64,000 nt of DNA from an uncultured Chloroflexia bacterium (GTDB lineage Bacteria > Chloroflexota > Limnocylindria > Limnocylindrales > CSP1-4), in NCBI GenBank assembly GCA_963763775.1, contig CAVXPZ010000004.1:192001-256000 (forward strand). The letters are read 5' to 3'. Positions 30,261-44,751 of the stretch are shown here, piece after piece. The position numbers and the translations under genes were made by a program. A model generated the notes under the pieces. It saw only the letters and a list, made by a program, of their open reading frames with translations. It did not search any database and was not told where the DNA came from. How positions within the stretch are numbered: the stretch's first letter is position 1; each line of letters opens with the position of its first letter.

Positions 30261-30784
30261 CCGTGTCCTCCTTCGGGCGTTCCGGCGCCCGTCGACCAGC
30301 GTTCCTCGTAGGTTCGCGGGGCCCCGTCCGCGACGGCGCGCCGCCCGGTCGCTGGGTCGCGCCACACCGGCCCACGAGCGAGCACGGCGTCGATCAGGCC
30401 CTCATCGAGGTAGACCGGGACCTCCCACGAGCGCAGCTCCAGGGCCATCTGCCCCGGGTACCCGATCAGGTCGCGGACCCCGCGGTCGGTGTAGTAGCCG
30501 GCCACGATCACCAGCTGGAGCACGCCCAGCGTCGACGGCTCGTCCCGGCCGAGGCCGTCGAGGCGCGCGTCGACGTCGTCGCCGAGGTCGGGCCGGAGCG
30601 CGGCGCGGAGCGGCTCGACGAGGTCGGGCCGGGCGTTCAGCACGAACCGCAGGCGGTCGTCGCCGACGACATCGGCCGCGGACGGCATGCCGTGGGCGGC
30701 CGGGATCAGCCGGTCGGCGATGGCGCGCAGCGTCGCCAGCTCCGCGGCGTCCAGGCTGGCGTGCGAGTCGGCGGCGGCGGTCAT
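30257..30784 (-). CDS. Gluconate 2-dehydrogenase subunit 3-like small partner of the GMC oxidoreductase
   Basis: 175 aa: LRAIADRLIPA...MPSA...AGYYTD...IGYPG; coupled to the GMC gene. Confidence 0.75.
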   Translation of the reverse strand: MTAAADSHASLDAAELATLRAIADRLIPAAHGMPSAADVVGDDRLRFVLNARPDLVEPLRAALRPDLGDDVDARLDGLGRDEPSTLGVLQLVIVAGYYTDRGVRDLIGYPGQMALELRSWEVPVYLDEGLIDAVLARGPVWRDPATGRRAVADGAPRTYEERWSTGAGTPEGGHG

Positions 30785-32394
30785 GCCGGCACCTGCTGCT
30801 CGAAGCGGGTCTCGACCATGTGGTCGGCGGCCCGCAGCGCGATCGCGACGATCGTCGAGGTCGGGTTGACGCCGGACGAGGTGACGAAGCACGAGCCGTC
30901 CACGACGTACAGGTTCGGGACGTCGTGGGTCCGGTTCCAGCGGTCGAGGACGGACGTCGCCGGGTCGTCGCCCATCCGGGCCGTGCCCAGCAGGTGCCAG
31001 CCCGAGTAGCGCATGAGCCGGTCGACCTCGATCTTGTAGGCGCCGGCGGCGTCCATCGACTCCTTCGCCCGCTCGATGTGGAAGTCGAGCATCCGGCGCG
31101 AGTTGTCGGACATGCGGTAGTGGACCTCGGGCGCCGGGATGCCCGACGAGTCCGTGACCGTCGAGGACAGCGTGATGTGGTTGGCCTCGTCGGGCAGGTC
31201 CTCGGCGAACAGCCCCCAGTTCGCGCCGTGGCCGAGGTGGCTCTTGACGTGGGTGTGGTGCTCGGGGCCCCAGGCCTGCTCGCCGGCACGGCTGGGCAGC
31301 GCGGTGTTGATCGGCCCGCCGGTCGGGGCGAGACCCCACCGGGCGCCGCGGACGAAGCCGCGCTTCTCGTCGGTCTCGTAGAACTCGAGCGACTCGATGA
31401 GGTCGCCGAACTGGCCCTGCCAGCTCATCAGCGGCTCGTCGAACAGGCCGGCGACGTTGGCGAACGGATGCATCATCAGCCGCTTGCCGACCAGGCCCGA
31501 CGAGTTCGCCAGCCCGTCCGGGAACCGCGGGCTCGTCGAGTTGAGCAGCAGCCGGGGCGTGCCGATCGCGTTGGCCGCGAGGACGACCGTCTTCGCCGGC
31601 TGGAGATGCTCGCCGCCGTCCCGGTCGATCCAGGTGGCGCCGGTGGCCAGGCCTCGGGCGTCGGTCTCGATCCGGCGGACGCGCGCGCCGGTGACGAGCC
31701 GGGCGCCCAGGGCGATCGCCTTGGGCCAGTGGGTCAGGTCGGTCGAGGCCTTGGCGCCCTCGTTGCAGCCGGACTGGCAGGTGCTGCGCTGGACGCACGG
31801 CCGACGGCCGTCGTACGCCACCGAGTTGATCGAGTTGAACTCCGGCCACCAGTGCCAGCCGAGCTTCGTCTGGCCGCGAGCGACCTTCAGCCCGGCGGAG
31901 CCGATCGGGAGCGGCGGCATCGGGGCGTCCTCGGTGTCCGGCGGGTAGGCCGGGTCGCCGGGCAGGCCGGACACGCCGAACTGGCGGTCGGTCCGGTAGA
32001 AGTACGGCAGCAGCTCGAAGTAGTCGATCGGCCAGTCGTCGGCGATGCCGTCGAGCGAGCGGACGCGGAAGTCGGAGGGGAGGGCGCGCGGCCAGGCGCC
32101 CGCGAAGATGATCGTGGAGCCGCCGACCGCGTTGTACATGAGCGGCGAGACCGGGGTGTCGTCCTCGACGATCGGGTAGTCCGCCGCGAGGCCGCGCAGG
32201 TTCGGGCTGGTCGCCCAGTCCTTGCGGGCCTTGAGCTCCCAGTCGAGCTTGTTCCCCGGGTAGTCCGCCCGGTCGAGCCAGTCGCCCTGCTCCAGGCACA
32301 CCACCGAGAACCCGGCTTCGGCCAGCCGCAAGGCCACGACCCCGCCGGACGCGCCGGCGCCGATGATCAGGACATCTGCTGGTTCGGTGGCCAA
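30781..32394 (-). CDS. GMC family FAD oxidoreductase
   Basis: AAGGAGG RBS then TTG start. DVLIIGAGASG, VGGST, GLVGKRLMMHP, HLLGTARMG, NPTSTI. Confidence 0.92.
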   Translation of the reverse strand: MATEPADVLIIGAGASGGVVALRLAEAGFSVVCLEQGDWLDRADYPGNKLDWELKARKDWATSPNLRGLAADYPIVEDDTPVSPLMYNAVGGSTIIFAGAWPRALPSDFRVRSLDGIADDWPIDYFELLPYFYRTDRQFGVSGLPGDPAYPPDTEDAPMPPLPIGSAGLKVARGQTKLGWHWWPEFNSINSVAYDGRRPCVQRSTCQSGCNEGAKASTDLTHWPKAIALGARLVTGARVRRIETDARGLATGATWIDRDGGEHLQPAKTVVLAANAIGTPRLLLNSTSPRFPDGLANSSGLVGKRLMMHPFANVAGLFDEPLMSWQGQFGDLIESLEFYETDEKRGFVRGARWGLAPTGGPINTALPSRAGEQAWGPEHHTHVKSHLGHGANWGLFAEDLPDEANHITLSSTVTDSSGIPAPEVHYRMSDNSRRMLDFHIERAKESMDAAGAYKIEVDRLMRYSGWHLLGTARMGDDPATSVLDRWNRTHDVPNLYVVDGSCFVTSSGVNPTSTIVAIALRAADHMVETRFEQQVPA

Positions 32395-32447
32395 GACTGC
32401 CTCCTTCGGCGACGACGGATGCGACCTCGGATCTCGGGACTGGCGGG

Positions 32448-33390
32448 TCAGGTGCGGGCCGCGGCGCCGGCGATCGGCTCGCGGAGGAGCCCGACCTCGG
32501 CGAGGACCGACGCGAGGAACGCGCGCTCGTCGTCGGAGACCGGCAGCAGCGGGCGGCGGACATGGGCGTTCTCGAGGACCGCCGAGGATCCGCAGGCATT
32601 CCTTCAGCCGGACGCGGTAGTCGCCGACCGGCGCGGCGAAGACGACGTCGGCGAGTCGCTGCACGCGACGGCCGAGCGCCAGGGCCTCGTCGGTCCGGCC
32701 GGCCTGCCAGGCCGCGATCATGTCGACCTGCTCGCGGGTCATCACCGCCCCGAACCCGATGAGGGCGCCGGTCGCGCCGAGCAGGAACGACTCGAGGATG
32801 AAGTTGTCGTTGCCGGTCAGGAGCGTGATCCGTCGCGGCAGGTGCTCGAGGAGCCGGGCCGTGTCCACGAACCGGCGGGCGTCGAAGGACGCTTCCTTGA
32901 TCGCCACCACGCCATCCACGGCGGCCATCGCCTCGAGCGTGTCCTGCTCGTAGTTGACGCCGGCCAGGGCGGGCTGGAGCTGGAACAGGATCAGCGGCAG
33001 GCCGACGTCGGCGATCGCCTCGTGGTACGCGACGGGGACGCGCGGGTCGAGCGGCTGGCTCAGGTAGGCCGGGATCGGGAAGACGAGCAGGGCATCGGCG
33101 CCGGCGGCCTTGAAGTCCCTGGCCTGACGCACCGCGGCGTCGGTCGACGGCCCGGCGAGCCCGGCGACGATCGGCAGGTCCGTGACGTCGTCGACGATGC
33201 GCAGGATGCGGACCTTCTCGTCGTGCGTGAGGTGCGGGCCCTCCCCCGTGTCGACGTTGATCGCCAGCGCGACCGGGCCCTGCTGGACGACCCAGTCGAT
33301 GTAGGCGCGGAGGGCCGGCTCGTCGATCTGGCCGTCAGCGTCCATCGGCAGCACGGTGGCGGGGATCAGGCCGTCGAGGTTCAGCACCAT
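32448..33390 (-). CDS. Dihydrodipicolinate synthase family aldolase/dehydratase (apparent +1 frameshift near 32581)
   Basis: GLIPATVLPMDADGQID, DTGE, AIKEAS, LLTGND. After removing one base it reads HVRRPLLP to TGA at 32448. Confidence 0.85.
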
Positions 33391-33420
33391 CTCTCACTCC
33401 GGTCGCGGGTCGGGCGGGAA

Positions 33421-33432
33421 GTAATCGTTTGC
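33421..33432. promoter_or_regulatory. Candidate LacI operator GTAATCGTTTGC
   Basis: Fits the LacI GnAAnCGnTTnC pattern, 30 bp upstream of the operon that contains the LacI gene at 27712-28782. Confidence 0.55.
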
Positions 33433-33501
33433 TATCGTACGCCGCCGGCCGGTGGCGCCGCCTGTCGTGCCACGCGTCTGGCACGACGCGCGCCGATACG
33501 C

Positions 33502-33512
33502 TCGATAATCGA
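33502..33512. promoter_or_regulatory. Candidate GntR(FCD) operator TCGAT-A-ATCGA
   Basis: Palindrome overlapping a GATAAT -10-like element, 21 nt before the SDR start. Same motif at 43577. Confidence 0.55.
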
Positions 33513-33533
33513 TCAGATGCAGCGAGGAGCCCG

Positions 33534-34321
33534 ATGAGCCAGCTCGACGTCTTCAGCCTGGCCGGCAAGGTCGCCCTGATCCCGGGCGGCGGCGGCGGCA
33601 TCGGATCGGCGCTGGCGGAGGCGCTCGCCGGCGCCGGGGCCCGAGTGGCCGTGGCCGGGCGCAACCTCGAGAACGGCCAGGCGGCCGTCGCGCGCATCGT
33701 GGCCGCGGGCTCCGAGGGCCTGGCGATCGGCGCCGACGCGACCGAGGAGGCGGACTGCGACCGGATGGTCGCGGAGACGCTCGCGCGGTTCGGTCGCATC
33801 GACATCGTCGTGAATGCCGTGGGCGGCGGCGCGGGCAAGGTCCTGCATCCCGCGGAGGCCTACCCGCGGGCCGATTGGGACTGGATCATGGAACTCAACG
33901 TCCGGAGCACGGTGCTCCCGACCCAGGCCGCGGTCCGGGCGATGATCGAGGCCGGCCATGGCGGCGTCGTGCTGAATATCTCGTCCGTGCGGGCCAACCT
34001 CGGGATCAACGCCGGCTATTCGGCGTATGTCGCCGCGAAAGGGCGCGATCAGCTCGCTGACGCGGCAGTGGGCGACCGAGTGGGCGAAGCACGGCATCCG
34101 CGTCAACGCGATCATGCCGACCTTCGTGGACACGCCGCAGGTCGCGATGCTGCTCGAGGACCCGGCGTTCAAGGCCGGCATCGTGAACCGGATCCCGCTC
34201 GGCCCGGGTCGGCGAGACCCGCGATCTGGTCGGGCCGGCGATCTTCTTCTGCTCCGACGCGACGTCGTTCGTGACCGGCCAGGTCCTCGGGATCGACGGC
34301 GGTCTCACCGCCACGCAGTAG
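33534..34321 (+). CDS. SDR family oxidoreductase (gluconate 5-dehydrogenase-like; two apparent +1 frameshifts near 34040 and 34204)
   Basis: PGGGGGIG, NISS, YVAAKG; then EWAKHGIRVNAIMP; then FVTGQVLGIDGG to TAG 34321. Confidence 0.87.
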
Positions 34322-34350
34322 CCCGCCCCACCTCGAGGAGGACCGTCCCG

Positions 34351-35256
34351 ATGGCGACCGCGCCCGATATGCTCGGACTCGAGCGGGTCACGTCGAACGT
34401 CTACACGACCACGACGCTGCGGGGCTGCAACCCGAGCTTCGTCGTGACGTCGGCCGGGGTGGTCTGCATCGACACGCCGCAGCTGCCGACCAAGGCGGTC
34501 GCGATGCGGCAGGCCGCGGAGTCGCATGGGCCGATCCGCTACCTCATCAACACCGAGAACCACGTCGACCACATCTTCGGGAACCACTGGTACCGCGGCA
34601 TCGGCGACGTCGTGATGCACCAGGCGCTCTACGACATCTTCATGGACCAGACCGCCGCGCTCGACCCGTTCGCCTACGCGCTCGAGGCCATCCCGACCGA
34701 CGATCCCGAGGGCGCGGCGATCCTGCCCGACCGGGACGCCTACTACGCCGATCTGCCGCGCGGGACCGTCGTCTTCACGGGCGACCTGACACTCCGCGTG
34801 GGCTCGCACACGATCCGCTGCCTGTGGACGCCCGGTCACACGCCGGGCCAGCTGGCCGTGCACGTCCCCGAGGAGCGCGTGGTCTTCACGGGCGACACCA
34901 TCTTCTCGGGCTGCCAGACCTGGCTGATGACCTCGAACGTGGACCAGTGGCTCGAGGCTTTGGAACGCATCCGCGCCCTCGAGGACGTCGACCACGTCGT
35001 CCCCGGCCACGGGCCCGTGGTCGATCTCAAGTACGTCGAGACCCAGCGCTCCGTGCTGATGACCTGGAAGGCCGCCGTCTCCGATGCCGTCGCGAAGGGC
35101 TTCTCGCGGGAGGAGACGATCGCGAGCGTCCGGTTCGACGACGCCTTCGGGCCGGTCGACGTCGGGCAGGGCTACATGATGGATCACATCCAGAACAACA
35201 ACGCCGGCTCGCTCTGGGACAAGCTGACCGCGACGAACTACTCGAAGGGCCGCTGA
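34351..35256 (+). CDS. Metallo-beta-lactamase fold hydrolase (cyclase-like)
   Basis: GAGGAGG RBS. NTENHVDH, PGHT, FTGD, VPGHG. Confidence 0.9.
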   Translation: MATAPDMLGLERVTSNVYTTTTLRGCNPSFVVTSAGVVCIDTPQLPTKAVAMRQAAESHGPIRYLINTENHVDHIFGNHWYRGIGDVVMHQALYDIFMDQTAALDPFAYALEAIPTDDPEGAAILPDRDAYYADLPRGTVVFTGDLTLRVGSHTIRCLWTPGHTPGQLAVHVPEERVVFTGDTIFSGCQTWLMTSNVDQWLEALERIRALEDVDHVVPGHGPVVDLKYVETQRSVLMTWKAAVSDAVAKGFSREETIASVRFDDAFGPVDVGQGYMMDHIQNNNAGSLWDKLTATNYSKGR

Positions 35257-35294
35257 CGGCGTCGCGGCGCGGTCGCTGTCGCGGGCGCCGGCGC

Positions 35295-37447
35295 TCAGGC
35301 GCGGCCGGCTTCGACCTCGTCGGCGCGGGTCCGGCCGGCGAGCCGGATCAGGTCCTCGTGGAGCTCGAACCAGATCCCGTGATAGCTGTCGACGCGGGGC
35401 GAGGCGACGAACCGTCCGTCGCCAGCCTGCGCCCCCGCCAGCGCGCGCGCCAGTCGAGCCCGGTAGTCCGCCAGACGATGCGGGCCGGCCGTGGCGGCAT
35501 CGAACCAGGTCGCGGCGTCGGCGTCGATCGGCCGCCAGTCGCTCGAGGACGGCCGCGTCGTAGTCGGGGTCCGTGTGGTCGTTGACGACGCCGGCCGTCG
35601 GCGTCGCGGAGCTGCCAGGCCGTGACGACGTCCTTGACCCGATGGTCGAGCGCCAGGAAGGCGTCCAGCGCGGCCGCGGCGGACGCCGGGCCCCACGCGG
35701 CCCGGTCGGCGTCGAGGAGCGCTGCGGCCCGCGCCGTCCCGACGTCGGTGAGCTTGAGCGCGCCGGCCGAGCTCGCGACGAGCCCGTCGATGGCGAGCTG
35801 ATCGAGGACGGGCTCGACCATCGCCGGTTCGGCGAGGACGGCCTCGGCGATCCCGGGAAGCATGGCGAAGCCCTTGATCGCGATCACGCGCAGGCACCGA
35901 TCCGGCGTCACCTTCCGAGCGGCGACTGGCTCGGCGACGGCCGTGGCGGCGACGGCTCCCGGGGCGTCGGCGCGGGCTGGCGCCGGCTCGATCTCGATGC
36001 CGAGCTCCTCGGCCCAGCCGAGGAGCGTCCGCGCCTCGGGGACGACCTCCTCGGTCGTCGGGATGGCGCCCTCGAAGACCTCGCCGGTGCTGCCGTCGAT
36101 CGTGATGACCTCGCCCGTTCGCAGGGTCCGGTCGCCGATGACGACCTCGCCCTCGCGGACGACGAGATCGGCCGCGCCGACGACCGCGGGGATCCCCCAG
36201 CCGCGCGCCACGACCGCGGCATGGCTCGCGAGTCCGCCGCGCGACGTCAGGACCCCGGCCGCGCGGGCCATCCCGTGGACATCGTCGGGCGACGTCTCGG
36301 CACGCACGAGGATGGCCGGTCGGCCGTCGTCGGCGGCGGCCACGGCGGCTTCGGGGTCCGTGACGATCGGGCCGCTCGCCATCCCCGGCGAGGCCGGCAA
36401 CCCCGTCACCAGCGGCAGCAGGAAGCTGCTCCGGACGCTGGCGGTGGTCGGCGGATCCGCGAGCAGCGGGCGGACACGCTCGACGGCCTCGCGGCGCGAC
36501 AACGGGAATCCCGCGTCATCCGCCATGTCGACAGCGATCCGGAGGGCCGCCTGCGGGCTGCGCTTGCCGACTCGCGTCTGGAGCATCCAGAGCCGCCCGT
36601 CCTCGATGGTGAATTCGATGTCGCAGAGGTCGGCGTAGTGGCGTTCGAGCTCGTCGGCATAGCGGCGCAGGTCCGCGGCGACCGCGGGGAGCCGGGTGTC
36701 GAGGATGTCGATCGGCTCGGTCTGATGCGTCCCGGCGACGACGTCCTCCCCCTGGGCGTCGAACATGACGTCCCCGTACAGGCGGGGCTCACCGGTCGCG
36801 GGGTTGCGCGTGAAGACGACCCCGGTCGCCGACGTGGACCCGCGGTTCCCGAAGACCATCGCCTGGACCGTGACCGCTGTCCCCAGGTCGTCGGCGATCC
36901 CCTCCTTCGCGCGGTAGGCGACGGCGCGATCGCTCCGCCACGACCGGAACACGGCTTCGATCGCGAGGCGCAGCTGTTGCCACGGGTCGGCGGGCACGTC
37001 CGGCACGCCGACGATCGACCGGAATCCCGTTTCGAACCGCTCGCGGCACGCCTGGGCGAACGCGGCGTCACCCGAGGCCCGGGCGAGTCCGGCCGTCGTG
37101 GCCTCGTTCAGGCCGAGGTCCAGGATCGTGTCCATCATGCCCGGCATCGAGACCGGCGCGCCCGAGCGGACGCTGACGAGCAGCGGGTCCGCCGGATCGC
37201 CGAAGCGACGCCCCACGGCGGTCTCCACGTCGCGCATCCGGGCGTGGACCTCCTCGTCCAGACCGGCCGGCCAGCCCTCGGCCAGGTACGTCCGGCACGC
37301 CGCGGTGGAGATGACGAACCCGGGCGGCACGGGCAGCCCGAGGTCGCGCGACATGACGCCCAGGTTCGCCGCCTTGCCGCCGACGAGCGCCTTCGCGTCG
37401 TCGAGCGTGCCAGGGTGGGCGGCGTCGAGCGGGTACGCCCAGGTCAC
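35295..37447 (-). CDS. Truncated pyruvate phosphate dikinase-like protein (ATP-grasp plus His swivel domain) fused to a helical C-terminal domain (two apparent +1 frameshifts near 35596 and 35531)
   Basis: GGKAANL, PVPPGF, LVSVRSGA..SMPGMMDT, QAMVFGN, QGEDVVAG, DIEFTIE, GGLASHAAVVARGWG. No PEP/pyruvate TIM barrel; ends with DSYHGIWFELHEDLI. Confidence 0.85.
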
Positions 37448-39690
37448 CGGCCCGCCGCCTCGCGGAGCGCGCGCCACACCCGTTCCGGGGTCAGCGGCAG
37501 GTCGCGGATCACCACCCCGGTCGCGTCGGCGACCGCTGCGGCCACGGCCGGCGCGACGCACAGCAGCGCCCCCTCGCTCATCCCCTTCGAGCCATACGGC
37601 CCCGGGCCGTCCTCGTTCTCGATCACGTCGCTCTCGATCCGGTGCGGCAGGTCCAGGCTCGTCGGGATCTTGTAGTCGATGGCCCCGAGGTTGCGGATCC
37701 GGCCCTCATCGTCGTAGAGGTACTGCTCCATCAGCGTGTGGCCGAGACCCATGACCGCGGCGCCCTCGTCCTGGCCCCGGACCTGGATCGGGTTGAGGGC
37801 CTTCCCGACATCCGAGACGGTCACGTGGCGGACGATCGTGATGTCGCCGGTCTCGCGGTCCACCTCGACCTCGATGGCCGTGCAGTTGAACTCGAAGAAC
37901 GCCGCGGTCCCGCCGAGCGGGTGGTCCGGCTCCGCTTCCTTGCGCATCTCGCCGATGCCGATGACCTCGCCACCCAGCCGACCAAGGCCGCGGATCAGGA
38001 CGTCGCGGATCGGCAGGACCCGCTCGCCGATCCGGACCTCGCCGCGCTCGACGACCACGGCCGACTCGTCGACCGACTCGAGGCGCGCGGCCATCGTCCG
38101 GAGCTTCGCCTGGACCGCCCGGCAGGCATCCAGCACGGCGTTGCCCATCAGGACCGACGAGCGGCTCGCCGACGTCTGCTGGTCGTACGGGACGACGGCC
38201 GTGTCGCCCATGACGACCGTGACCCAGTCGACCGGGGCGCCGAGCTCCTCGGCCGCGATCTGGGCGAGGATCGTCCGGGCACCCTGACCCATGTCGGACG
38301 TGCCGGCGAACACCACGACGCTGCCGTCGGCGAGCAGGCGGACCGTGGAGTACGACAGGCCGGTCGTCGGGCCGGACTTGAGGCCGACGGCGATCCCGCG
38401 ACCCCGGCCTGGCGCCGGCGGGGTCCCCCAGCCGATCATCTCGGCCGCACGGTCGACCGTTCGTGCCCAGTCCCCGTCGGCCGGCGTGTCTCCCGGGATG
38501 AACGCATCGCCCCGACGCGCGAGGTTCTGCCGCCGGAGCGCGAGCGGGTCGATGCCGAGGACTCGCGCCGCCTCGTCCATGTTCGACTCGACGGCCCAGA
38601 TCTGCTGTGGATTGCCGAAGCCGCGGAACGCGGTCGACGGGGTCGTGTGCGACAGGATGCTCCGGGCGAGGATCCGCATCGCGGGGACCCGGTACGGCCC
38701 GGACGAGGTGTAACTGCCCTTGCCGACCGTCCGGTCCGCGATGTCCGCATAGGCGCCGATCAGGTAGTTCGCCTCGACGTCGCGGAACACGATCGTGCCG
38801 TCGCGGCGGAAGCCCGTGCGGACGCGGACCGCCGAGGCGCCGCGACGCACGGCCTGGAACGTCTCCTCCAGGGTCAGGATGAGTCGGACCGGCCGGCCCG
38901 CGCGCAGCGCCATGAACGCCACGAGCGGCTCGTACTTCGCGTGCTGCTTGCCGCCGAACCCGCCACCCGGGTCGGGCGCGAAGATGCGCACCTTGGCCAG
39001 CGGCAGGTGGAGCAGGCCGGCGATGACTCGCTGCAGCCAGTTCGGATGCTGGATCGAGCTCCACACCGCGATCCCGTCGCCGTCGGGCGCGGCGATGAAC
39101 CCGTGCGGCTCGATGGCGAACTGCGTGACCATCGGGAACGTGTAGGTGCCCTCGACGACCACCTCCGCGACCGCCGCGTCCACGTCGCCCCAGCCGTAGT
39201 GATGCTCGCGCAGGACGTTGGTGCCGTTGAGCGGGTCGCCCGGCCGGATCGCGGGGTCCTGGACGAGCGGCGCGGCCGGGTCCAGCGCATCGGCGATCGT
39301 GAAGACCGCGGGCAGCGCCTCGTACTCGACCCGGACCAGCCGGGCCGCCTCCTCGGCGGCATCGAGGGTGTCCGCCGCGACCGCGGCGACCGGCTCGCCG
39401 TGGTAGCGGGTCTCCCCCACCGCGAGCACCGGCCGGTCCTGGAACTGCGGTCCGAACCGCGGCATCGGGTCGGGCAGGTCGGCGGCGGTCATGACCAGCC
39501 GGACACCGGGCACCGCCAGGGCCGCGCTGGTGTCGATCGCGATGATGCGGGCGCGTGCGACGTCGACGCTCACGAGCTTCGCGTGGAGCGCGCCTTCGAC
39601 GCGCAGGTCCGCCACGTAGGCCTGGCGGCCGGTGACCCGGTCGAGTCCGCCGACGCGGGCGGGCGACGTCCCGATGCCGGTCTCGTTCAC
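37444..39690 (-). CDS. Xanthine dehydrogenase family molybdopterin-binding subunit
   Basis: 748 aa: GGGFGGK, AFRGFG, SASRS, GPYGSKGMSEG. Confidence 0.93.
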   Translation of the reverse strand: MNETGIGTSPARVGGLDRVTGRQAYVADLRVEGALHAKLVSVDVARARIIAIDTSAALAVPGVRLVMTAADLPDPMPRFGPQFQDRPVLAVGETRYHGEPVAAVAADTLDAAEEAARLVRVEYEALPAVFTIADALDPAAPLVQDPAIRPGDPLNGTNVLREHHYGWGDVDAAVAEVVVEGTYTFPMVTQFAIEPHGFIAAPDGDGIAVWSSIQHPNWLQRVIAGLLHLPLAKVRIFAPDPGGGFGGKQHAKYEPLVAFMALRAGRPVRLILTLEETFQAVRRGASAVRVRTGFRRDGTIVFRDVEANYLIGAYADIADRTVGKGSYTSSGPYRVPAMRILARSILSHTTPSTAFRGFGNPQQIWAVESNMDEAARVLGIDPLALRRQNLARRGDAFIPGDTPADGDWARTVDRAAEMIGWGTPPAPGRGRGIAVGLKSGPTTGLSYSTVRLLADGSVVVFAGTSDMGQGARTILAQIAAEELGAPVDWVTVVMGDTAVVPYDQQTSASRSSVLMGNAVLDACRAVQAKLRTMAARLESVDESAVVVERGEVRIGERVLPIRDVLIRGLGRLGGEVIGIGEMRKEAEPDHPLGGTAAFFEFNCTAIEVEVDRETGDITIVRHVTVSDVGKALNPIQVRGQDEGAAVMGLGHTLMEQYLYDDEGRIRNLGAIDYKIPTSLDLPHRIESDVIENEDGPGPYGSKGMSEGALLCVAPAVAAAVADATGVVIRDLPLTPERVWRALREAAGR

Positions 39691-40163
39691 GATCCGCCGG
39701 CCTCGGCCGCCGCCAGCACGGCCTCGATGATCTGCTCGTACCCGGCGCACCGGCAGAGGTTCCCGGCGAGCCCGTCCTCGACGGCCGCCCGGGTCGGGTG
39801 CGGGTCGATCGCGAGCAGGGCCTTGGCGGCCAGCAGCTGCCCGGGGATGCAGAACCCGCACTGGGCCGCACCGGTCTCGAGGAACGCCGTCTGGAGCGGG
39901 TGGAGCCGGTCGCCCGAGGCGAGGCCCTCGACCGTGGTGACCGCCGTGCCGTCGGCCTCCACCGCGAACATCAGGCAGGCGTCCACGCTCACGTCGTCGA
40001 CGAGGACGGTGCACGCGCCGCACTCCCCGACGAGGCAACAGGCCTTCGTCCCGCTGAGACCGAGGTCGTCCCGGAGCACCTCGAGGAGCGTGTGATGCGT
40101 GGCCACCTCCGCGGTCCGCGCGCGCCCGTTCACTGACAGCTCGATCCGCCGGGTCTCGGGCAT
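39687..40163 (-). CDS. Xanthine dehydrogenase family 2Fe-2S subunit
   Basis: 158 aa: CLVGECGAC..C, QCGFC, GNLCRC. Confidence 0.94.
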   Translation of the reverse strand: MPETRRIELSVNGRARTAEVATHHTLLEVLRDDLGLSGTKACCLVGECGACTVLVDDVSVDACLMFAVEADGTAVTTVEGLASGDRLHPLQTAFLETGAAQCGFCIPGQLLAAKALLAIDPHPTRAAVEDGLAGNLCRCAGYEQIIEAVLAAAEAGGS

Positions 40164-41033
40164 CACGACACCGCCTGGCCGGACAGCCGCTCGATCGCGG
40201 TGCCGATGGCCCGAAGCCCGAGGACGTGCAACATCGCGAGGCGGTACTCGGGGCTGGCGCGCATCGATCCCGGCGACGGGCTGGCGTCGACGAAGAGCTC
40301 CTCGAGCCGCGTCAGCTTCGCGCCGTCCGGCGCCGATGGATCCGCGAGCACCCCGGTGTCGTCGACGACGAGCAGCGGTCGAGGCCCGAGGCTGCCGTAC
40401 GCGATCCGCGTCGAGCCCGTCGCACTGACGGCACAGGTCAAGGTCACAGACGCGAGGTCGTGGCCACGGCGACGGGTGCGGCGCACGTGGACCGACGCGG
40501 CTGGCCCGTCCGGACGCGGCAGCTCGATCGCCGTGACCAACTCGCCGGGTTCGAGCGTCGTCACGCCGGACCGGACGAAGAAGCCGTCGATGGCGATCCG
40601 TCGCTCGCCGCTCGGGCCGGCCAGCGACGACCACGGCGCTGTCCACGAGGAGCGCCGGCGCGGTGTCCGCGGCCGGGGAGGCGTTGCAGACATTCCCGGC
40701 GAGCGTCGCGCGGTTCCGGATCTGGGCCGACCCGACGACCGAGGCCGCCTCGGCCAGGGCAAGGTGATCGCGGCGGATCCGCTCGTCGGCCGCGATGTCG
40801 GTCATGACGGTCCGTGCCCCGACGCGCAAGACCCCGTCCGCCTCGCGGATCCCCGCGTCGAGCTCGGCGATGCGCTTGACGTCGACGACGACCCGCGGCT
40901 GGATCGACCCGTCCCGCAGCCGGATGATGAGGTCCGTGCCGCCGGCGAGCAGTCGCGCGTCGTCACCGTGCTCGGCGAGCAGGCCCACGGCATCGGCGAG
41001 CCGGGTCGGCCGTTCGTAGGCGAAGGGTCGCAT
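40163..41033 (-). CDS. Xanthine dehydrogenase family FAD-binding subunit (apparent +1 frameshift near 40622)
   Basis: LAGGTDL, QIRNRATLAGN, ASPAAD; continues in ORF 40163..40762 (RASPEYR). Confidence 0.9.
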
Positions 41034-41042
41034 CGTCCGGCC

Positions 41043-41723
41043 CTAGATGGCCCGGTCGACGTCGTCGAGCCAGCGGCGAGCCATGTTCTCGCTGACCTCC
41101 TCGAAGTGGCGCTGGAGCGCGTCCACCACGGCGGCCGCGTCGCGACGTTCGATCGCGGCCTGGATCGGGCCGTGGAGGTCGGCCGACCACGTCGGGTCCG
41201 CCCCGGGGACGACGAGCGTGATGTAGGTCCGCGAGAACGGCTCGAGCGACCGCCAGACGCGGAGCAGGGCGCCGTTGTCGGCCAGCTCCACGATCCGCCC
41301 GTGGAACCGGGCGTCGGCCTCGGCGACGGCATGGCCGTCATCGACTCGGGCGGCGGCGCGCATGGCCTCGAGATGGCCCGCGAGTTCGGCGATATCCGCA
41401 TCGGTCAGCCGGGGCACCGCCAGTCGGGCGCCGAGCGCTTCGAGCGAGGAGCGCACCGCGTACGCCTCGATGATCTCGCGCCGCGACGGGTGGCGGACGC
41501 GTGCCCCGCGGAAGGGCGTGATCTCGACGACGCCCAGCGCCTCGAGGCCGCGTAGGGCCTCGCGGACCGGCGCCTGGCTCGTCCCGAGCTCACGGGCCAC
41601 CTGGGTCTCGATGATCCGGGCGTCGGGCGGGTAGTGCCCGCTGAGGATGCCCTCCAGGATCCGGTCCTTCACCTGATCGGCCAGGACGCTCCTCGGGATG
41701 ATCCGCCCGGTGGCCATCGACAC
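41043..41723 (-). CDS. GntR family regulator (FadR/FCD type)
   Basis: 226 aa: LADQV...GTSQAPVREAL, DARFH. Confidence 0.93.
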   Translation of the reverse strand: MSMATGRIIPRSVLADQVKDRILEGILSGHYPPDARIIETQVARELGTSQAPVREALRGLEALGVVEITPFRGARVRHPSRREIIEAYAVRSSLEALGARLAVPRLTDADIAELAGHLEAMRAAARVDDGHAVAEADARFHGRIVELADNGALLRVWRSLEPFSRTYITLVVPGADPTWSADLHGPIQAAIERRDAAAVVDALQRHFEEVSENMARRWLDDVDRAI

Positions 41724-41729
41724 GGCCGC

Positions 41730-43515
41730 TCAGCGTCCGATCGCGGACGTCGGCGAGCCGGCGGGTCGAGCGGACTCGTCGCGGATGATCTCGACGCGCC
41801 CGGCAGTCCCGTCGAGCCGGAGACGGTCCCCGGTCACGATCCGCTGCGTCGCGACCGACGTGCCGATGACCGCGGGGATCCCGAACTCGCGGGCGAGGAC
41901 AGCCGGGTGCGAGGTGGTACCGCCGGTATCGGTGACGAGTCCGGCGATCTTCGTGAAGAGCACGACCCACGCCGGGTTCGTCATCTGGCAGACGAGGATG
42001 TCTCCCTCGCGGACGTCGTCGAACTCGTCGACGGTCCGCACGACCCGCGCGATCCCCTCGACCGTGCCCGCGGACCCGCCGATCCCGGTGATGACCCGCT
42101 GGTCCTCGGATTGCCGCTGGTAGAACCGGTCCGGATACCCCCAGTTCACGAGATACGGGAACGCGAGCTGCGAGGACGTCACGGTGCCCACCCAGTCGCG
42201 CGGGTGCAGCCGTTGGGCCGCCTCGCGCTCCTCGCGGCGCGCGGCGACGATCCCGCGGGCGTCGATCGCGGTCGGGCTCCCGATGAGGGCTCGCAGCTCG
42301 TTGTAGCGGAGGAACATCACGTCGTCGGGCTGGTCGAGCACGTCCGGCCGCGACCAGTTTGTCGCCGACGGTCAGCAGCACCAGGCGCAGGTGCGCGTTG
42401 GCCCCTTGGTCGATGTAGAAGTGATGATCCGGGGTCAGCGGCGCCATCCGGAGGTTGACCTCGTTGGCGGCCCGCATCTCGTCGAGGGCCGTGCCGGACA
42501 GGCCCTCGAGGATCTCCCGTGACGCCGCCTCGATGTCGAGCCGCATCGCCTCGATCGCGCTCGGGTAGTCGTAGTCCGAGACGAGATAGCCGCGGACGAG
42601 CTCGAGGATCGGCTCCATCTGTTCGCGGGCGGTCGGGAAGATGAACTCGTGGCTCCAGACGGCGTGCCAGCCGAACTCGCGCTGGTAGGGCTCGATCCGC
42701 TCGGTGATGAACCGCTGGCCGCGGGCGCTCGCCCGGAGCGACCCGGCGATCCTGTCGACGTCGTCGGGGGCGAACGCCGCGCGGAGCTCCGGGTCGTCGC
42801 CGACCTCGTCCTTCATCCGCCACAGGGCCTCGATCGAGTCCCAGTTGCGATCCGACGCCGAGTTCTGGAGTCGCCCCAGCAAGGCCTCGTCCACCGAGCC
42901 GCGGGTCTTCTCCATGACCGCACGCAGGTTCAATGTCGCCGAGAGCTGCGCGAAGTTGAGCATCCAGTGGATCTTCCAGTGGCGGTCGTGGACGTCGATG
43001 GCGTCCTCCAGGAGGCACGCGGCGTCGGCCAGGTCCATCTCGTCGGCGGCGTCGAGGCGGGCTTCGAGGAACGCGAAGTTGCGCTCCATCTCGGGCCGCA
43101 GCCGGTCGCGCCACCAGTCGGCGAAGTCGCGGCCGTACACCGGGAGCACGGCGTCGAGATAGGCGCCCATCGTGGTCGCGAACGCCGCGTCGCGCGGCAC
43201 GCGCGCCACATAACTGGCGCTGTACTCGGTGCCCTCGATGCGGAGTCCCGGGTCCGCCGGGATGGCCGTCGTGTACACATAGCCGTTGACGTTCTTGGCC
43301 AGCCAGTCCACCGCGAACGGCGTCCCGAAGCGCCGGAACATGTGGTCGCAGCTGAGCCACCAGCCGCCGATGTCGAAGAACATGGGGCTGACGGGATGCG
43401 GGATGTGCAGGTCGTCGTAGACCCAGAAGAAGTCCTTCTCGGCATCGGACGCCCACGTCACCGGGAACGTCGCGTCCCCCAGGAACTGGCCGAGGATCTC
43501 CTCTGTCGCTGCCAC
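41730..43515 (-). CDS. PEP-utilizing enzyme: large substrate-binding domain plus C-terminal phosphohistidine swivel, no ATP-grasp (apparent +1 frameshift near 42342)
   Basis: GGAGG then GTG at 43515. C-terminus GDILVCQMTNPAW...DTGGTTSHPAVLAREFGIPAV...LDGTAG. No GGK or VRSS ATP-grasp motifs. Confidence 0.85.
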
Positions 43516-43576
43516 GGGCCGACCCTCCAAGGTGCCACGGGGTTCGGGTTCCACGGACGTCACGTCCGGCGAGTCA

Positions 43577-43587
43577 TCGATCATCGA
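43577..43587. promoter_or_regulatory. Candidate GntR(FCD) operator TCGAT-C-ATCGA
   Basis: Palindrome (extends to ATCGATCATCGAT) just downstream of a minus-strand CATAAT -10, between the divergent PEP-utilizer and transaldolase genes. Confidence 0.6.
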
Positions 43588-43626
43588 TTATGATAGCCGC
43601 GTCGCGGCGGCGCTCCACGAGGAGGC

Positions 43627-44751
43627 ATGGTGCTCGCTCCAGCCGAGGAAGACCTGATCGACTGCCCGATGCTTCGGACCGTCGTCGATCGCCCGACGGA
43701 CTACTGGAACGACTCGTGCTCGGTCGAGGAGCTCCGCTACGCGGTCGCCCGCGGCGCGACCGGGGCGACGTCGAACCCCAGCATCGTCCTCGAGGTCCTG
43801 CGCAAGGAGCACGCACATTGGGCCGCCCGGATCGCCGAGATGGCGGCCGCCGATCCCGCCTCGACCGAGGTCGACCTCACCTGGGCCGTGATCGAGGAGA
43901 TGGCCGTGCGCGGCGCCGCCGTGCTGGAGCCCGTCTTCGTCCGCGAGGACGGCCGCAAGGGCCGGCTTTCGCTCCAGACCGATCCGGCGAACTACCCGGA
44001 CACCGAGCGGATGCTCCAGCAGGGGCGGCGGTTCGCCACCCTCGCACCGAACATGCAGGTGAAGTTCCCGGCGACGCGGGCCGGGATCGCCGCGATCGAG
44101 GCGGCCACCGCGGCCGGCGTGAACATCAATGCCACGGTGTGCTTCACCGTCCCGCAGGCGATCGCGGTCGCCGAGGCGGTGGAGCGCGGGCTCGATGCGC
44201 TGGCCGCGAACGGCAGCGCGGGCGAGGCCGGCGTGGACGCGACCGCCCTGACGCCCGTGTGCACGATCATGGTCGGGCGTCTCGACGACTGGATGCGCGC
44301 CGTGGCCGAGCGGGACGGGATCGCCGTGCACCCCGACGCCCTGGACTGGGCCGGGATCGCCGCGTTCAAGCGCGCGTACGGGATCTTCCGTGAGCGCGGG
44401 TATCGCACGAGGCTCCTCGCGGCCGCCTACCGGCATCGTCTGCATTGGACCGAGTTCGTCGGCGGGGACGTCGTCCTGACGATGCCGCACGCCTGGCAGG
44501 AGCGGTTCAACGCCAGCGGCATCACACCAGAGGACCGGATGGACGCGCCGGTCGATCCGGGACTCGTCACCGAGTTGCTGGAGCGGATCCCGGACTTCGG
44601 CCGAGCCTATGAGCCGGACGGGATGGCGATCGCCGAGTTCGATGGCTACGGCGCCACGGTGCGGACGCTCCGCGGGTTCATCGGGTCGTATCACGAATTG
44701 GTCGGCGCGGTCCGCGACATCGTGCTGCCCGATCCCGACAAGCGGCGCTGA
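43627..44751 (+). CDS. Transaldolase family protein (atypical active site)
   Basis: 374 aa: WND, GATSNP, QVKFPAT, NINAT, MVGRLDD; GGAGG RBS. Confidence 0.88.
   Translation: MVLAPAEEDLIDCPMLRTVVDRPTDYWNDSCSVEELRYAVARGATGATSNPSIVLEVLRKEHAHWAARIAEMAAADPASTEVDLTWAVIEEMAVRGAAVLEPVFVREDGRKGRLSLQTDPANYPDTERMLQQGRRFATLAPNMQVKFPATRAGIAAIEAATAAGVNINATVCFTVPQAIAVAEAVERGLDALAANGSAGEAGVDATALTPVCTIMVGRLDDWMRAVAERDGIAVHPDALDWAGIAAFKRAYGIFRERGYRTRLLAAAYRHRLHWTEFVGGDVVLTMPHAWQERFNASGITPEDRMDAPVDPGLVTELLERIPDFGRAYEPDGMAIAEFDGYGATVRTLRGFIGSYHELVGAVRDIVLPDPDKRR

Follow-up and report, generated by a model that had tools for sequence, protein, structure and literature searches.

The stretch of DNA analysed here (the window) comprises 64,000 nucleotides of contig CAVXPZ010000004.1 from the genome of an uncultured Chloroflexia bacterium (GCA_963763775.1, referred to as G000). 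Nearly identical proteins bear database names that assign the organism to Chloroflexota, 'Candidatus Limnocylindria' (CSP1-4 group). On its minus strand, between positions 35295 and 43584, lies an operon in which genes for a predicted acceptor subunit (A) and a truncated pyruvate, phosphate dikinase (PPDK; E) flank those for a GntR-family regulator and for the three subunits (B, C and D) of a molybdenum (Mo) enzyme of the xanthine dehydrogenase (XDH) family. Comparative genomics supports A and E as a conserved pair that is linked to the Mo enzyme. We consider it probable that A and E form a split small-molecule dikinase of the rifampin phosphotransferase (RPH) type, which would work with the three-subunit Mo hydroxylase, under control of the GntR/FCD regulator, in the catabolism of a hydroxylated aromatic or N-heteroaromatic compound. 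Two kinds of characterised proteins serve as references throughout. HpeHI of Rhodococcus rhodochrous GD02, CreHI, PpsAB and AcvAB are two-component small-molecule dikinases whose mechanism has been defined, according to the available text of PMC12167813; chemistry of this type converts ATP to AMP and Pi and phosphorylates a phenolic hydroxyl by way of His~P. VadK (Rv1127c) of Mycobacterium tuberculosis is a truncated PPDK that autophosphorylates on His422, as described in the accessible part of PMC13400623.

Genes were called in the window from a listing of open reading frames (ORFs), a frame plot of G+C content at third codon positions (GC3) and three-frame translations. All three bore out an initial annotation made from the sequence, which had seen a tightly packed minus-strand operon here. 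The region has a G+C content of ~72%, and its six genes run nearly without gaps from 43584 down to 35295, in the order A-GntR/FCD-B-C-D-E:

41730..43584, minus strand: A, predicted acceptor subunit, with an RPH/HpeH-like helical substrate-binding domain of ~480 aa and a C-terminal swivel domain (GGTTSHPAV)
41043..41723, minus strand: GntR-family regulator with an FCD ligand-binding domain (Pfam GntR 2.9e-13, FCD 6.7e-26)
40163..41033, minus strand: B, FAD-binding subunit of the XDH-family Mo enzyme (FAD_binding_5 5.1e-35, CO_deh_flav_C 5.2e-06)
39687..40166, minus strand: C, [2Fe-2S] subunit (Fer2_2 1.6e-28, Fer2 1.7e-07)
37444..39690, minus strand: D, molybdopterin-binding large subunit of 748 aa with STAFRGFGNPQ (Ald_Xan_dh_C, MoCoBD_1, MoCoBD_2)
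35295..37447, minus strand: E, VadK-like truncated PPDK with GGLASHAAV (PPDK_N 3e-50, PEP-utilizers 1.5e-23) and a C-terminal domain modelled as a winged helix-turn-helix (wHTH) and a four-helix bundle

The B/C, C/D and D/E junctions are GTGA overlaps, in which the start of C, D and E shares the preceding stop, the usual sign of translational coupling. A signal scan of 35100-43800 detected no sigma-70-like promoter and no intrinsic terminator, and we looked for an inverted repeat upstream of A and found none. Pfam and NCBIfam scans confirmed all the domains named in the initial annotation, and Pfam placed a GntR regulator and three XDH-family subunits between A and E, where that annotation had them. 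Most relatives carry an additional 295-aa gene, X, between the regulator gene and B (L012:9291-10205, minus strand); this slot is absent from the window, at 41033-41043, and X was not found in the window nor elsewhere in G000, whose completeness by marker genes is 87%. X possesses a GGESNHGKS P-loop and a weak PEPCK/HprK-like similarity.

In the window, A, B and E are broken by four insertions or deletions (indels) within ~8.3 kb, one each in A and B and two in E:

~42342, minus strand: A indel (1 base), with the N part at 42343-43584 and the C part at 41733-42341
~40616-40619, minus strand: B indel, with the N part at 40620-41033 and the C part at 40166-40615
~35590-35594 and ~35529-35530, minus strand: E indels, with pieces at 35594-37447, 35530-35589 and 35298-35528

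These frameshifts are very probably errors of long-read assembly because the orthologues are intact, the corrected frames of the window contain zero in-frame stops and keep a GC3 of ~0.9 each, the G000 assembly (3.3 Mb) has low completeness for its 4 contigs, and three few-contig genomes of the same genus (G017, G020 and G024) have the same genes split at different positions. We extracted 46 uninterrupted orthologues of A (574-669 aa, ~600) and 48 of E (mostly 703-741 aa, ~708), and those at the closest locus are 74-87% identical, per segment, to the window proteins. That the operon of G000 might instead be a decaying cluster of pseudogenes with real frameshifts is suggested by the density of the breaks, by the adjoining SDR gene, which switches frame near 34000-34270 (probably another indel), and by the missing gene X. 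Yet X is also absent from seven intact loci (L025, L028, L032, L034, L076, L091 and L094), and each of the points made above, from the lack of in-frame stops to the different break sites in other genomes, argues against decay, which we regard as very unlikely. In public soil reads (two runs), only 5-6% of the sampled words were present and the short contigs came mostly from relatives; no indel is listed at the four sites, the cover there not being shown. Folds and searches used the intact orthologues from genome G005 (locus L012, the same as L019), and the swivel histidines His554 (A) and His409 (E) are numbered on them.

Pfam detected PEP-utilizers in the last 200 aa of A only, and no match in its first 414 aa. 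Intact A aligns end to end with NCBIfam NF006153 (PRK08296.1-5; positions 36-606 of 608, 176 bits, below cut-off) and also with RedH and PigC, over the C-terminal two thirds of these proteins, while the NCBIfam RPH models scored far below cut-off on the C-terminal piece of A (NF041857, 124.7 versus 999). The AlphaFold model of an A orthologue (pLDDT 86.5, pTM 0.87) matched RPH (5fbu/5hv1) over 611-624 columns (E ~1e-18, TMq 0.62), all other structural matches being confined to the swivel. Since the match to RPH covers both its rifampin-binding and its swivel domains, the N-terminal domain of A is predicted from the model to be an acceptor domain of the RPH rifampin-binding type. A cryptic ATP-grasp in this region is rejected by the NCBIfam alignment together with the RPH structural match, so that the initial view of A as a substrate-type domain joined to a His swivel and lacking an ATP-grasp stands. 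Across its whole length A furthermore shares 25% identity with an HpeH-like protein encoded in an acetovanillone-type cluster on a Rhizobium plasmid, and the catalytic histidine of A is kept in 34 of 34 aligned sequences. Precomputed annotations assign PF27448 to homologues of A.

E scored over the cut-off of NF004531 (PRK05878, truncated 'pyruvate, phosphate dikinase'; 502 versus 456 bits) and below that of the true-PPDK model TIGR01828 (530.9 versus 843.45 bits), and Pfam detected no PEP-utilizers_C, the PEP/pyruvate TIM barrel. E is thereby ruled out as a bona fide PPDK, and these scans agree with its earlier description as an ATP-grasp and a His swivel with no pyruvate barrel. The model of an E orthologue (pLDDT 86.4) matched PPDK (1kbl) over its first 536 columns with 39% identity, PPDK chains aligning only to about residue 540. 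According to VIA-align, the grasp of E resembles those of HpeI (9goj, Z 19.4) and of the RPH ATP domain (Z 20.0), and its swivel resembles the PPDK carrier domain (Z 17.9). The His loop GG[LFM][AV]SHAA occurs without exception in 45 of 45 E orthologues.

The C-terminal domain of E, ~210 aa long, is covered by no Pfam or NCBIfam family. In the model, residues 503-576 fold as a MarR-type winged helix (Z 11-13, root-mean-square deviation 1.1-2.1 Å over 73 residues) and residues ~574-701 as a four-helix bundle of common arrangement; a Foldseek search with the entire model of E left this domain without a clear match, and VIA-align returned only generic MarR-type wHTH and helical-bundle matches. Its motif SP.VD..H..WFELHE has the named residues invariant across the 45 orthologues. 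Among 8000 scored candidates of a large protein collection, ~1235 proteins match the domain at E <=0.001, and the 120 listed matches contain a swivel and, for nearly all of them, PPDK_N, some being fragments. An apparent D-E fusion protein (P0369) was rejected as a read-through caused by a frameshift in the C-terminus of D.

B, C and D exhibit the three standard domain sets of XDH-family enzymes, and D carries AFRGFG. Among solved chains, 4-hydroxybenzoyl-CoA reductase alpha (1rm6_A) is closest to D, with 332 bits, followed by quinoline 2-oxidoreductase and then by 6-hydroxypseudooxynicotine dehydrogenase; those of CO dehydrogenases and xanthine dehydrogenases rank below these three. Because of these closest relatives, the sequence of D points to an aromatic or N-heteroaromatic substrate. 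All NCBIfam equivalogs for D fell below cut-off, including those for 4-hydroxybenzoyl-CoA reductase itself, which is rejected despite being the closest solved chain (TIGR03194, 454.2 versus 994.55), for xanthine dehydrogenase (XdhA NF043082, 451.8 versus 780) and for aerobic CO dehydrogenase (CO_dehy_Mo_lg, 255.7 versus 991.15), the latter as had been anticipated from the AFRGFG motif. B matches TIGR03195 (4-hydroxybenzoyl-CoA reductase beta) only at 4-116 and 177-273, without the stretch 117-176.

To follow the set of genes across genomes, we scanned one genome per species, which gave 565 relatives of A, and kept the best 80 loci, all of which are at least 59% identical to the query over the best segment. 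E was found in 61 of these 80 loci, D in 67, B in 71 and X in 65. In 50 loci, A has at least 9.5 kb of sequence to either side; E is present in 48 of them, D in 49 and X in 44, although these loci are mostly kin (Limnocylindria) and not independent, so that the counts overstate independence. The two misses for E are L046, which has a match to the C-terminal domain only, and L048, which has many low-identity fragments. The order A-GntR-(X)-B-C-D-E is preserved in seven of seven fetched loci of the genus, as far as the contigs reach. Of 24 further genomes of the genus, 16 have A, and it was detected in none of 16 genomes of a small-genome sister family. Among the 24, A and the C-terminal domain of E are both present in 12 and both absent from 8; four have A only, and none has E only. 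In two of the A-only genomes (G008 and G009) the contig ends within or just after D, and the other two (G013 and G014) are fragmented assemblies.

The set stays together while its layout varies: E is divergent from A in L050, L053, L058, L062 and L086, B-C-D-E lies on the opposite strand in L088, L093 and L097, and ~2 kb are added between D and E in many loci (L047, L049, L051, L055, L057 and others). This insert includes a Zn-dependent alcohol dehydrogenase gene in L055 and a cyclase-family gene in L043. Two paralogous systems occur in genome G016 (L121, at G016:C1:228000-240000, and L013, on G016:C5). Each of them comprises a separate A and a separate E, with E divergent from A in the second. 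The A matches of G016 are 68% identical, and its E copies are 75% identical to the query in the grasp and 50% in the C-terminal domain. Given the varying layout around an intact set, the phyletic pattern and the paired paralogues of G016, we consider the linkage to exceed chance despite the kinship of the loci, and these observations together with the locus counts reject a chance juxtaposition of A, E and the Mo enzyme. The proposal in the initial annotation that A and E are complementary halves tied to the Mo enzyme is supported by their co-occurrence in 48 of 50 loci and by the folds. In G000 itself, PPDK_N occurs only in E and in a single full-length PPDK, these two and A accounting for its three swivel domains, and a grasp-only HpeI-like gene was not found in this 87%-complete genome.

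We also examined 301 genomes sampled evenly across the phylum. The C-terminal domain of E was detected in 10 of the 301, namely G000, 6 of the 15 genomes from the family, 2 of the 15 from another family in the class, and one genome elsewhere with a weak match. Full-length A orthologues (>740 bits) occur in 20 of the 301 genomes, 13 of which are without the C-terminal domain of E; the overall tally for A, 143 of 301, includes swivel-only matches and three genomes flagged unpublished. Three of the 13 were fetched (G151, G047 and G326). In each, A is followed in turn by GntR (for which G047 gave no match), by a gene for a grasp-only protein and by those for the FAD, Mo and FeS subunits, the grasp-only dikinase subunit occupying the slot of X in these other Chloroflexota families. 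The same gene set, with other genes interspersed, is carried by megaplasmid NC_011961 of the cultured Thermomicrobium roseum, whose A is 49% identical and whose partner is a 323-aa protein annotated as 'PEP/pyruvate-binding domain-containing protein'. The A orthologues of T. roseum, G151, G047 and G326 are 49-59% identical. A GntR gene follows A in most related loci and also occurs in T. roseum and the other Chloroflexota families.

Because the sister families and T. roseum carry the grasp-only version, the module of A, an ATP-grasp protein, GntR and an XDH-type enzyme appears from gene content to be old and widespread in Chloroflexota, the Limnocylindria having apparently swapped the plain grasp for E. 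The swivel histidine of E and its wHTH/helical-bundle domain are a lineage-specific addition, which may act as a second carrier, in docking or in regulation. The T. roseum cluster (L099:6490-8593) also contains genes for a Tm-1-like ATP-binding protein (from a family that includes the aromatic kinase MarK, PMC12624787), a PEP-hydrolase-like protein, a cyclase, an FAH-family hydrolase and a branched-chain-type ABC transporter.

A tblastn search of plasmids with the C-terminal domain of E yielded 17 records, 16 of them covering at least 80% of the domain. Three of the plasmids carry the following genes:

L123:10356-15156 (Diaphorobacter sp. HDW4B plasmid NZ_CP049906): hypothetical protein of 304 aa, PEP-utilizing enzyme of 572 aa, hypothetical protein of 206 aa, 'pyruvate, phosphate dikinase' of 506 aa
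L125:7362-13617 (M. avium plasmid pP7a): PPDK of 542 aa, 201-aa gene, acyl-CoA dehydrogenase, PEP-utilizing enzyme of 503 aa, 296-aa protein
L124:7414-9585 (Rhodococcus sp. LW-XY12 plasmid pLW3): AMP-binding (acyl-adenylate-forming) protein that ends in a fused C-terminal domain of E (hmmsearch 4e-50, residues 529-722)

The 206-aa protein of Diaphorobacter is a full-length homologue of the C-terminal domain of E (hmmsearch 3e-54), and the 506-aa protein is 44% identical to E over the grasp and swivel; the 201-aa gene of M. avium is likewise homologous to the C-terminal domain (1e-44). The 296-aa protein of M. avium and the 304-aa protein of Diaphorobacter are 35% identical to each other, and no homology was detectable between X and these 296-304-aa genes. 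On pLW3, the fusion lies directly upstream of a truncated PPDK, with a PEP-utilizing enzyme nearby. All six swivel domains of the Diaphorobacter, M. avium and Rhodococcus systems keep GGxxSH. As the same trio is found on all three plasmids, the two-His arrangement appears to be a recurrent type of system that is not tied to Mo enzymes. The Diaphorobacter and M. avium plasmids have a four-gene module in common, made up of the 296-304-aa protein, an A-like PEP-utilizing enzyme, the 201-206-aa homologue of the C-terminal domain of E and a VadK-like truncated PPDK. It adjoins genes for Rieske dioxygenases in Diaphorobacter, and for acyl-CoA dehydrogenases and a P450 in M. avium. The grasp-only versions in sister families, the co-duplicated pair and the split or fused C-terminal domain of E beside VadK-like and A-like genes in three phyla are new here.

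We propose that E would bind ATP in its PPDK-type ATP-grasp and place the phosphoryl group on a swivel histidine, most simply His554 of A, as HpeI does for HpeH. The swivel of A would deliver it to the helical acceptor domain for transfer to a substrate hydroxyl, and the Mo enzyme would then act on the phosphorylated compound or, alternatively, make the compound to be phosphorylated. The genomic data suggest that A and E pair physically. Moreover, the grasp is the constant element of the partner of A across lineages, which favours a direct loading of the histidine of A by the grasp of E. Several observations weigh against this proposal besides the kinship of the counted loci. Direct loading of A does not explain why the swivel histidine of E is invariant (45 of 45). 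In addition, E differs from every characterised ATP-loading subunit, being PPDK-like, ~708 aa long and equipped with a swivel histidine of its own and a 210-aa extra domain, as compared with HpeI, CreI and PpsB, which the available text of PMC12167813 describes as grasp-only, PEP-synthase-like proteins of ~340-360 aa. The one characterised relative of E, VadK, is reported in the accessible part of its study (PMC13400623) as a regulator and not as part of a catabolic kinase. Two loci depart from the linkage, L059 having A-GntR with no XDH or E in ~10 kb downstream and L069 having A-GntR-X-B-C-D with no E within the next 4.8 kb. Finally, the neighbours in the window look sugar-phosphate-like (transaldolase-like, SIS and DeoC) and do not resemble ring-cleavage genes, which makes an aromatic substrate a guess based on precedent.

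The initial annotation had envisaged a His-to-His relay, in which E would autophosphorylate His409 and pass the phosphoryl group to His554 of A or to the acceptor site of A, and from there to the substrate. The invariance of the histidine in both E (45 of 45) and A (34 of 34) speaks for such a chain, and A-like and VadK-like proteins that both contain GGxxSH recur on the Diaphorobacter, M. avium and Rhodococcus plasmids; VadK, which falls under the same family model as E, autophosphorylates the equivalent histidine, according to the accessible part of PMC13400623. However, the orthologous A of T. roseum and of three other Chloroflexota genomes pairs with a grasp-only protein that has no such histidine, and we therefore find this route doubtful. 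To our knowledge, the only relay from a swivel domain is that from enzyme I of the phosphotransferase system to HPr. A different role for E, as a VadK-like regulatory histidine kinase whose MarR-like winged helix would control the operon or the Mo enzyme while A uses another donor, would be consistent with the winged helix that begins its C-terminal domain (Z 11-13), with the annotation of stand-alone homologues of this domain as MarR-family or transcriptional regulators, and with VadK, reported in the accessible part of PMC13400623 as a methylcitrate-cycle regulator that interacts with metabolic enzymes. Yet G000 is without any other ATP-grasp of the family except one full-length PPDK, and A has no PEP-binding domain; sister lineages, moreover, fill the functional position of E with a plain grasp-only dikinase subunit, and A and E are co-duplicated in G016. 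This role is improbable, more so than the His-to-His transfer. We retain a split dikinase composed of A and E as the preferred explanation.

A broader and speculative idea, to which we give a low probability, is that a VadK-type truncated PPDK and its small wHTH/helical-bundle partner would serve for ATP loading in another, widespread class of split small-molecule dikinases with two swivel histidines in series. The phosphoryl group would then pass from ATP to the histidine of the VadK-like protein, on to that of an HpeH-like acceptor protein and finally to a hydroxyl of the substrate. If so, the phospho-ester product would be processed by a Mo hydroxylase here, by Rieske dioxygenases in Diaphorobacter and by acyl-CoA enzymes on actinobacterial plasmids, and a family described as a regulatory histidine kinase would gain a catalytic partner and a small-molecule substrate.

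The scanned neighbours of the operon encode SDR, MBL-fold, transaldolase-like, SIS and GntR/UTRA proteins. A transaldolase/FSA-like gene (43627-44751, plus strand) is divergent from A and recurs beside A in L043, near a split transketolase, and in L052; it may hint at a link to sugar phosphates. The SDR gene and an MBL-fold hydrolase gene occupy 33429-35256 (plus strand), the latter being convergent with E, and the same MBL and SDR pair lies downstream of E in L078. At 30784-33393 (minus strand), a single frame of 870 aa contains a DHDPS-family aldolase domain and a GMC-oxidoreductase domain, and could be either a genuine fusion or the product of an indel that joined two genes. Cyclase, Zn-dependent alcohol dehydrogenase, ABC-transporter, MBL and SDR genes flank related loci.

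The pairing of a dikinase with a Mo enzyme has one published and unexplained precedent, the 3hpd cluster of Ensifer adhaerens HP1, for which the available text of a preprint (bioRxiv 10.1101/2020.01.08.898148) describes a 3-hydroxypyridine dehydrogenase (HpdA1-4), a 'pyruvate-phosphate dikinase' (orf9) and a 'PEP-utilizing protein mobile subunit' (orf10). There, orf9 and orf10 are genetically required, along with hpdA1-4, for the conversion of 3-hydroxypyridine to 2,5-dihydroxypyridine; no intermediate was detected and their role is unexplained. Judged by gene descriptions rather than sequence, that cluster and the window share XDH-family hydroxylase genes next to PEP-utilizing and PPDK-like genes, with a GntR gene nearby. 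The 3hpd cluster, as described in that text, differs in having a separate SRPBCC subunit (HpdA3) and the maleamate-pathway genes hpdBCDE, whereas Pfam detected no SRPBCC domain in any ORF of the operon and maleamate-pathway genes were not among its scanned neighbours. In a literature search outside which most subscription journals fell, we found no paper explaining the dikinase requirement of a Mo hydroxylase, only the 3hpd preprint touching on the pairing, and none linking VadK-type proteins to HpeH-type acceptor proteins. The initial annotation put the pathway forward as a candidate undescribed one, which is too broad, as split dikinases, the 3hpd precedent and VadK have all been described; here, the predicted ATP-loading half is an unusual cut-down PPDK type. 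The 3-hydroxypyridine study left unexplained why some Mo hydroxylases need an ATP-driven dikinase, a question for which this operon family, abundant in soil Limnocylindria, offers a compact test system. It joins three literatures that, in the texts available, do not cite one another, namely those on phenolic two-component dikinases, on the 3hpd hydroxylase and on VadK-type truncated PPDKs. A gene for an HpeH-like acceptor lies near that for the truncated-PPDK type in all four systems examined, which gives the truncated-PPDK family a testable biochemical role. For the carbon cycle, the operon suggests that hydroxylated aromatics or heterocycles enter a 'phosphorylate first' route in a dominant uncultured soil lineage.

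As to the known dikinases themselves, HpeH, as described in the available text, has the same architecture as A, an RPH-like acceptor domain followed by a C-terminal swivel histidine, RPH being the best structural match for both, and in HpeHI the ATP-grasp resides on a separate protein, as with E. The residue at His-2, reported there as Met in HpeH, is Thr or Val in A (GGTTSH in 16 and GGTVSH in 9 of 34 sequences), and the HpeHI-type systems described feed carboxylases or P450s, whereas a Mo hydroxylase is encoded here. VadK shares with the first ~490 residues of E an ATP-grasp and a phospho-His domain with no PEP/pyruvate barrel. It is co-expressed and co-purified with its operonic partner Rv1126c, from which 2 M NaCl washes are needed to separate it, according to the accessible part of PMC13400623; judging from the gene order and size in M. 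avium, Rv1126c may correspond to the C-terminal domain of E. No acceptor subunit or small-molecule substrate is described for VadK in that part of the study, whereas in the window the small partner domain forms part of E, and genes for an HpeH-like acceptor and a Mo enzyme accompany it. RPH, for its part, shares all three of its modules (ATP-grasp, helical acceptor domain and swivel histidine) with A and E taken together, with matching folds; RPH is a single chain with one histidine, and A and E are two chains with two His domains.

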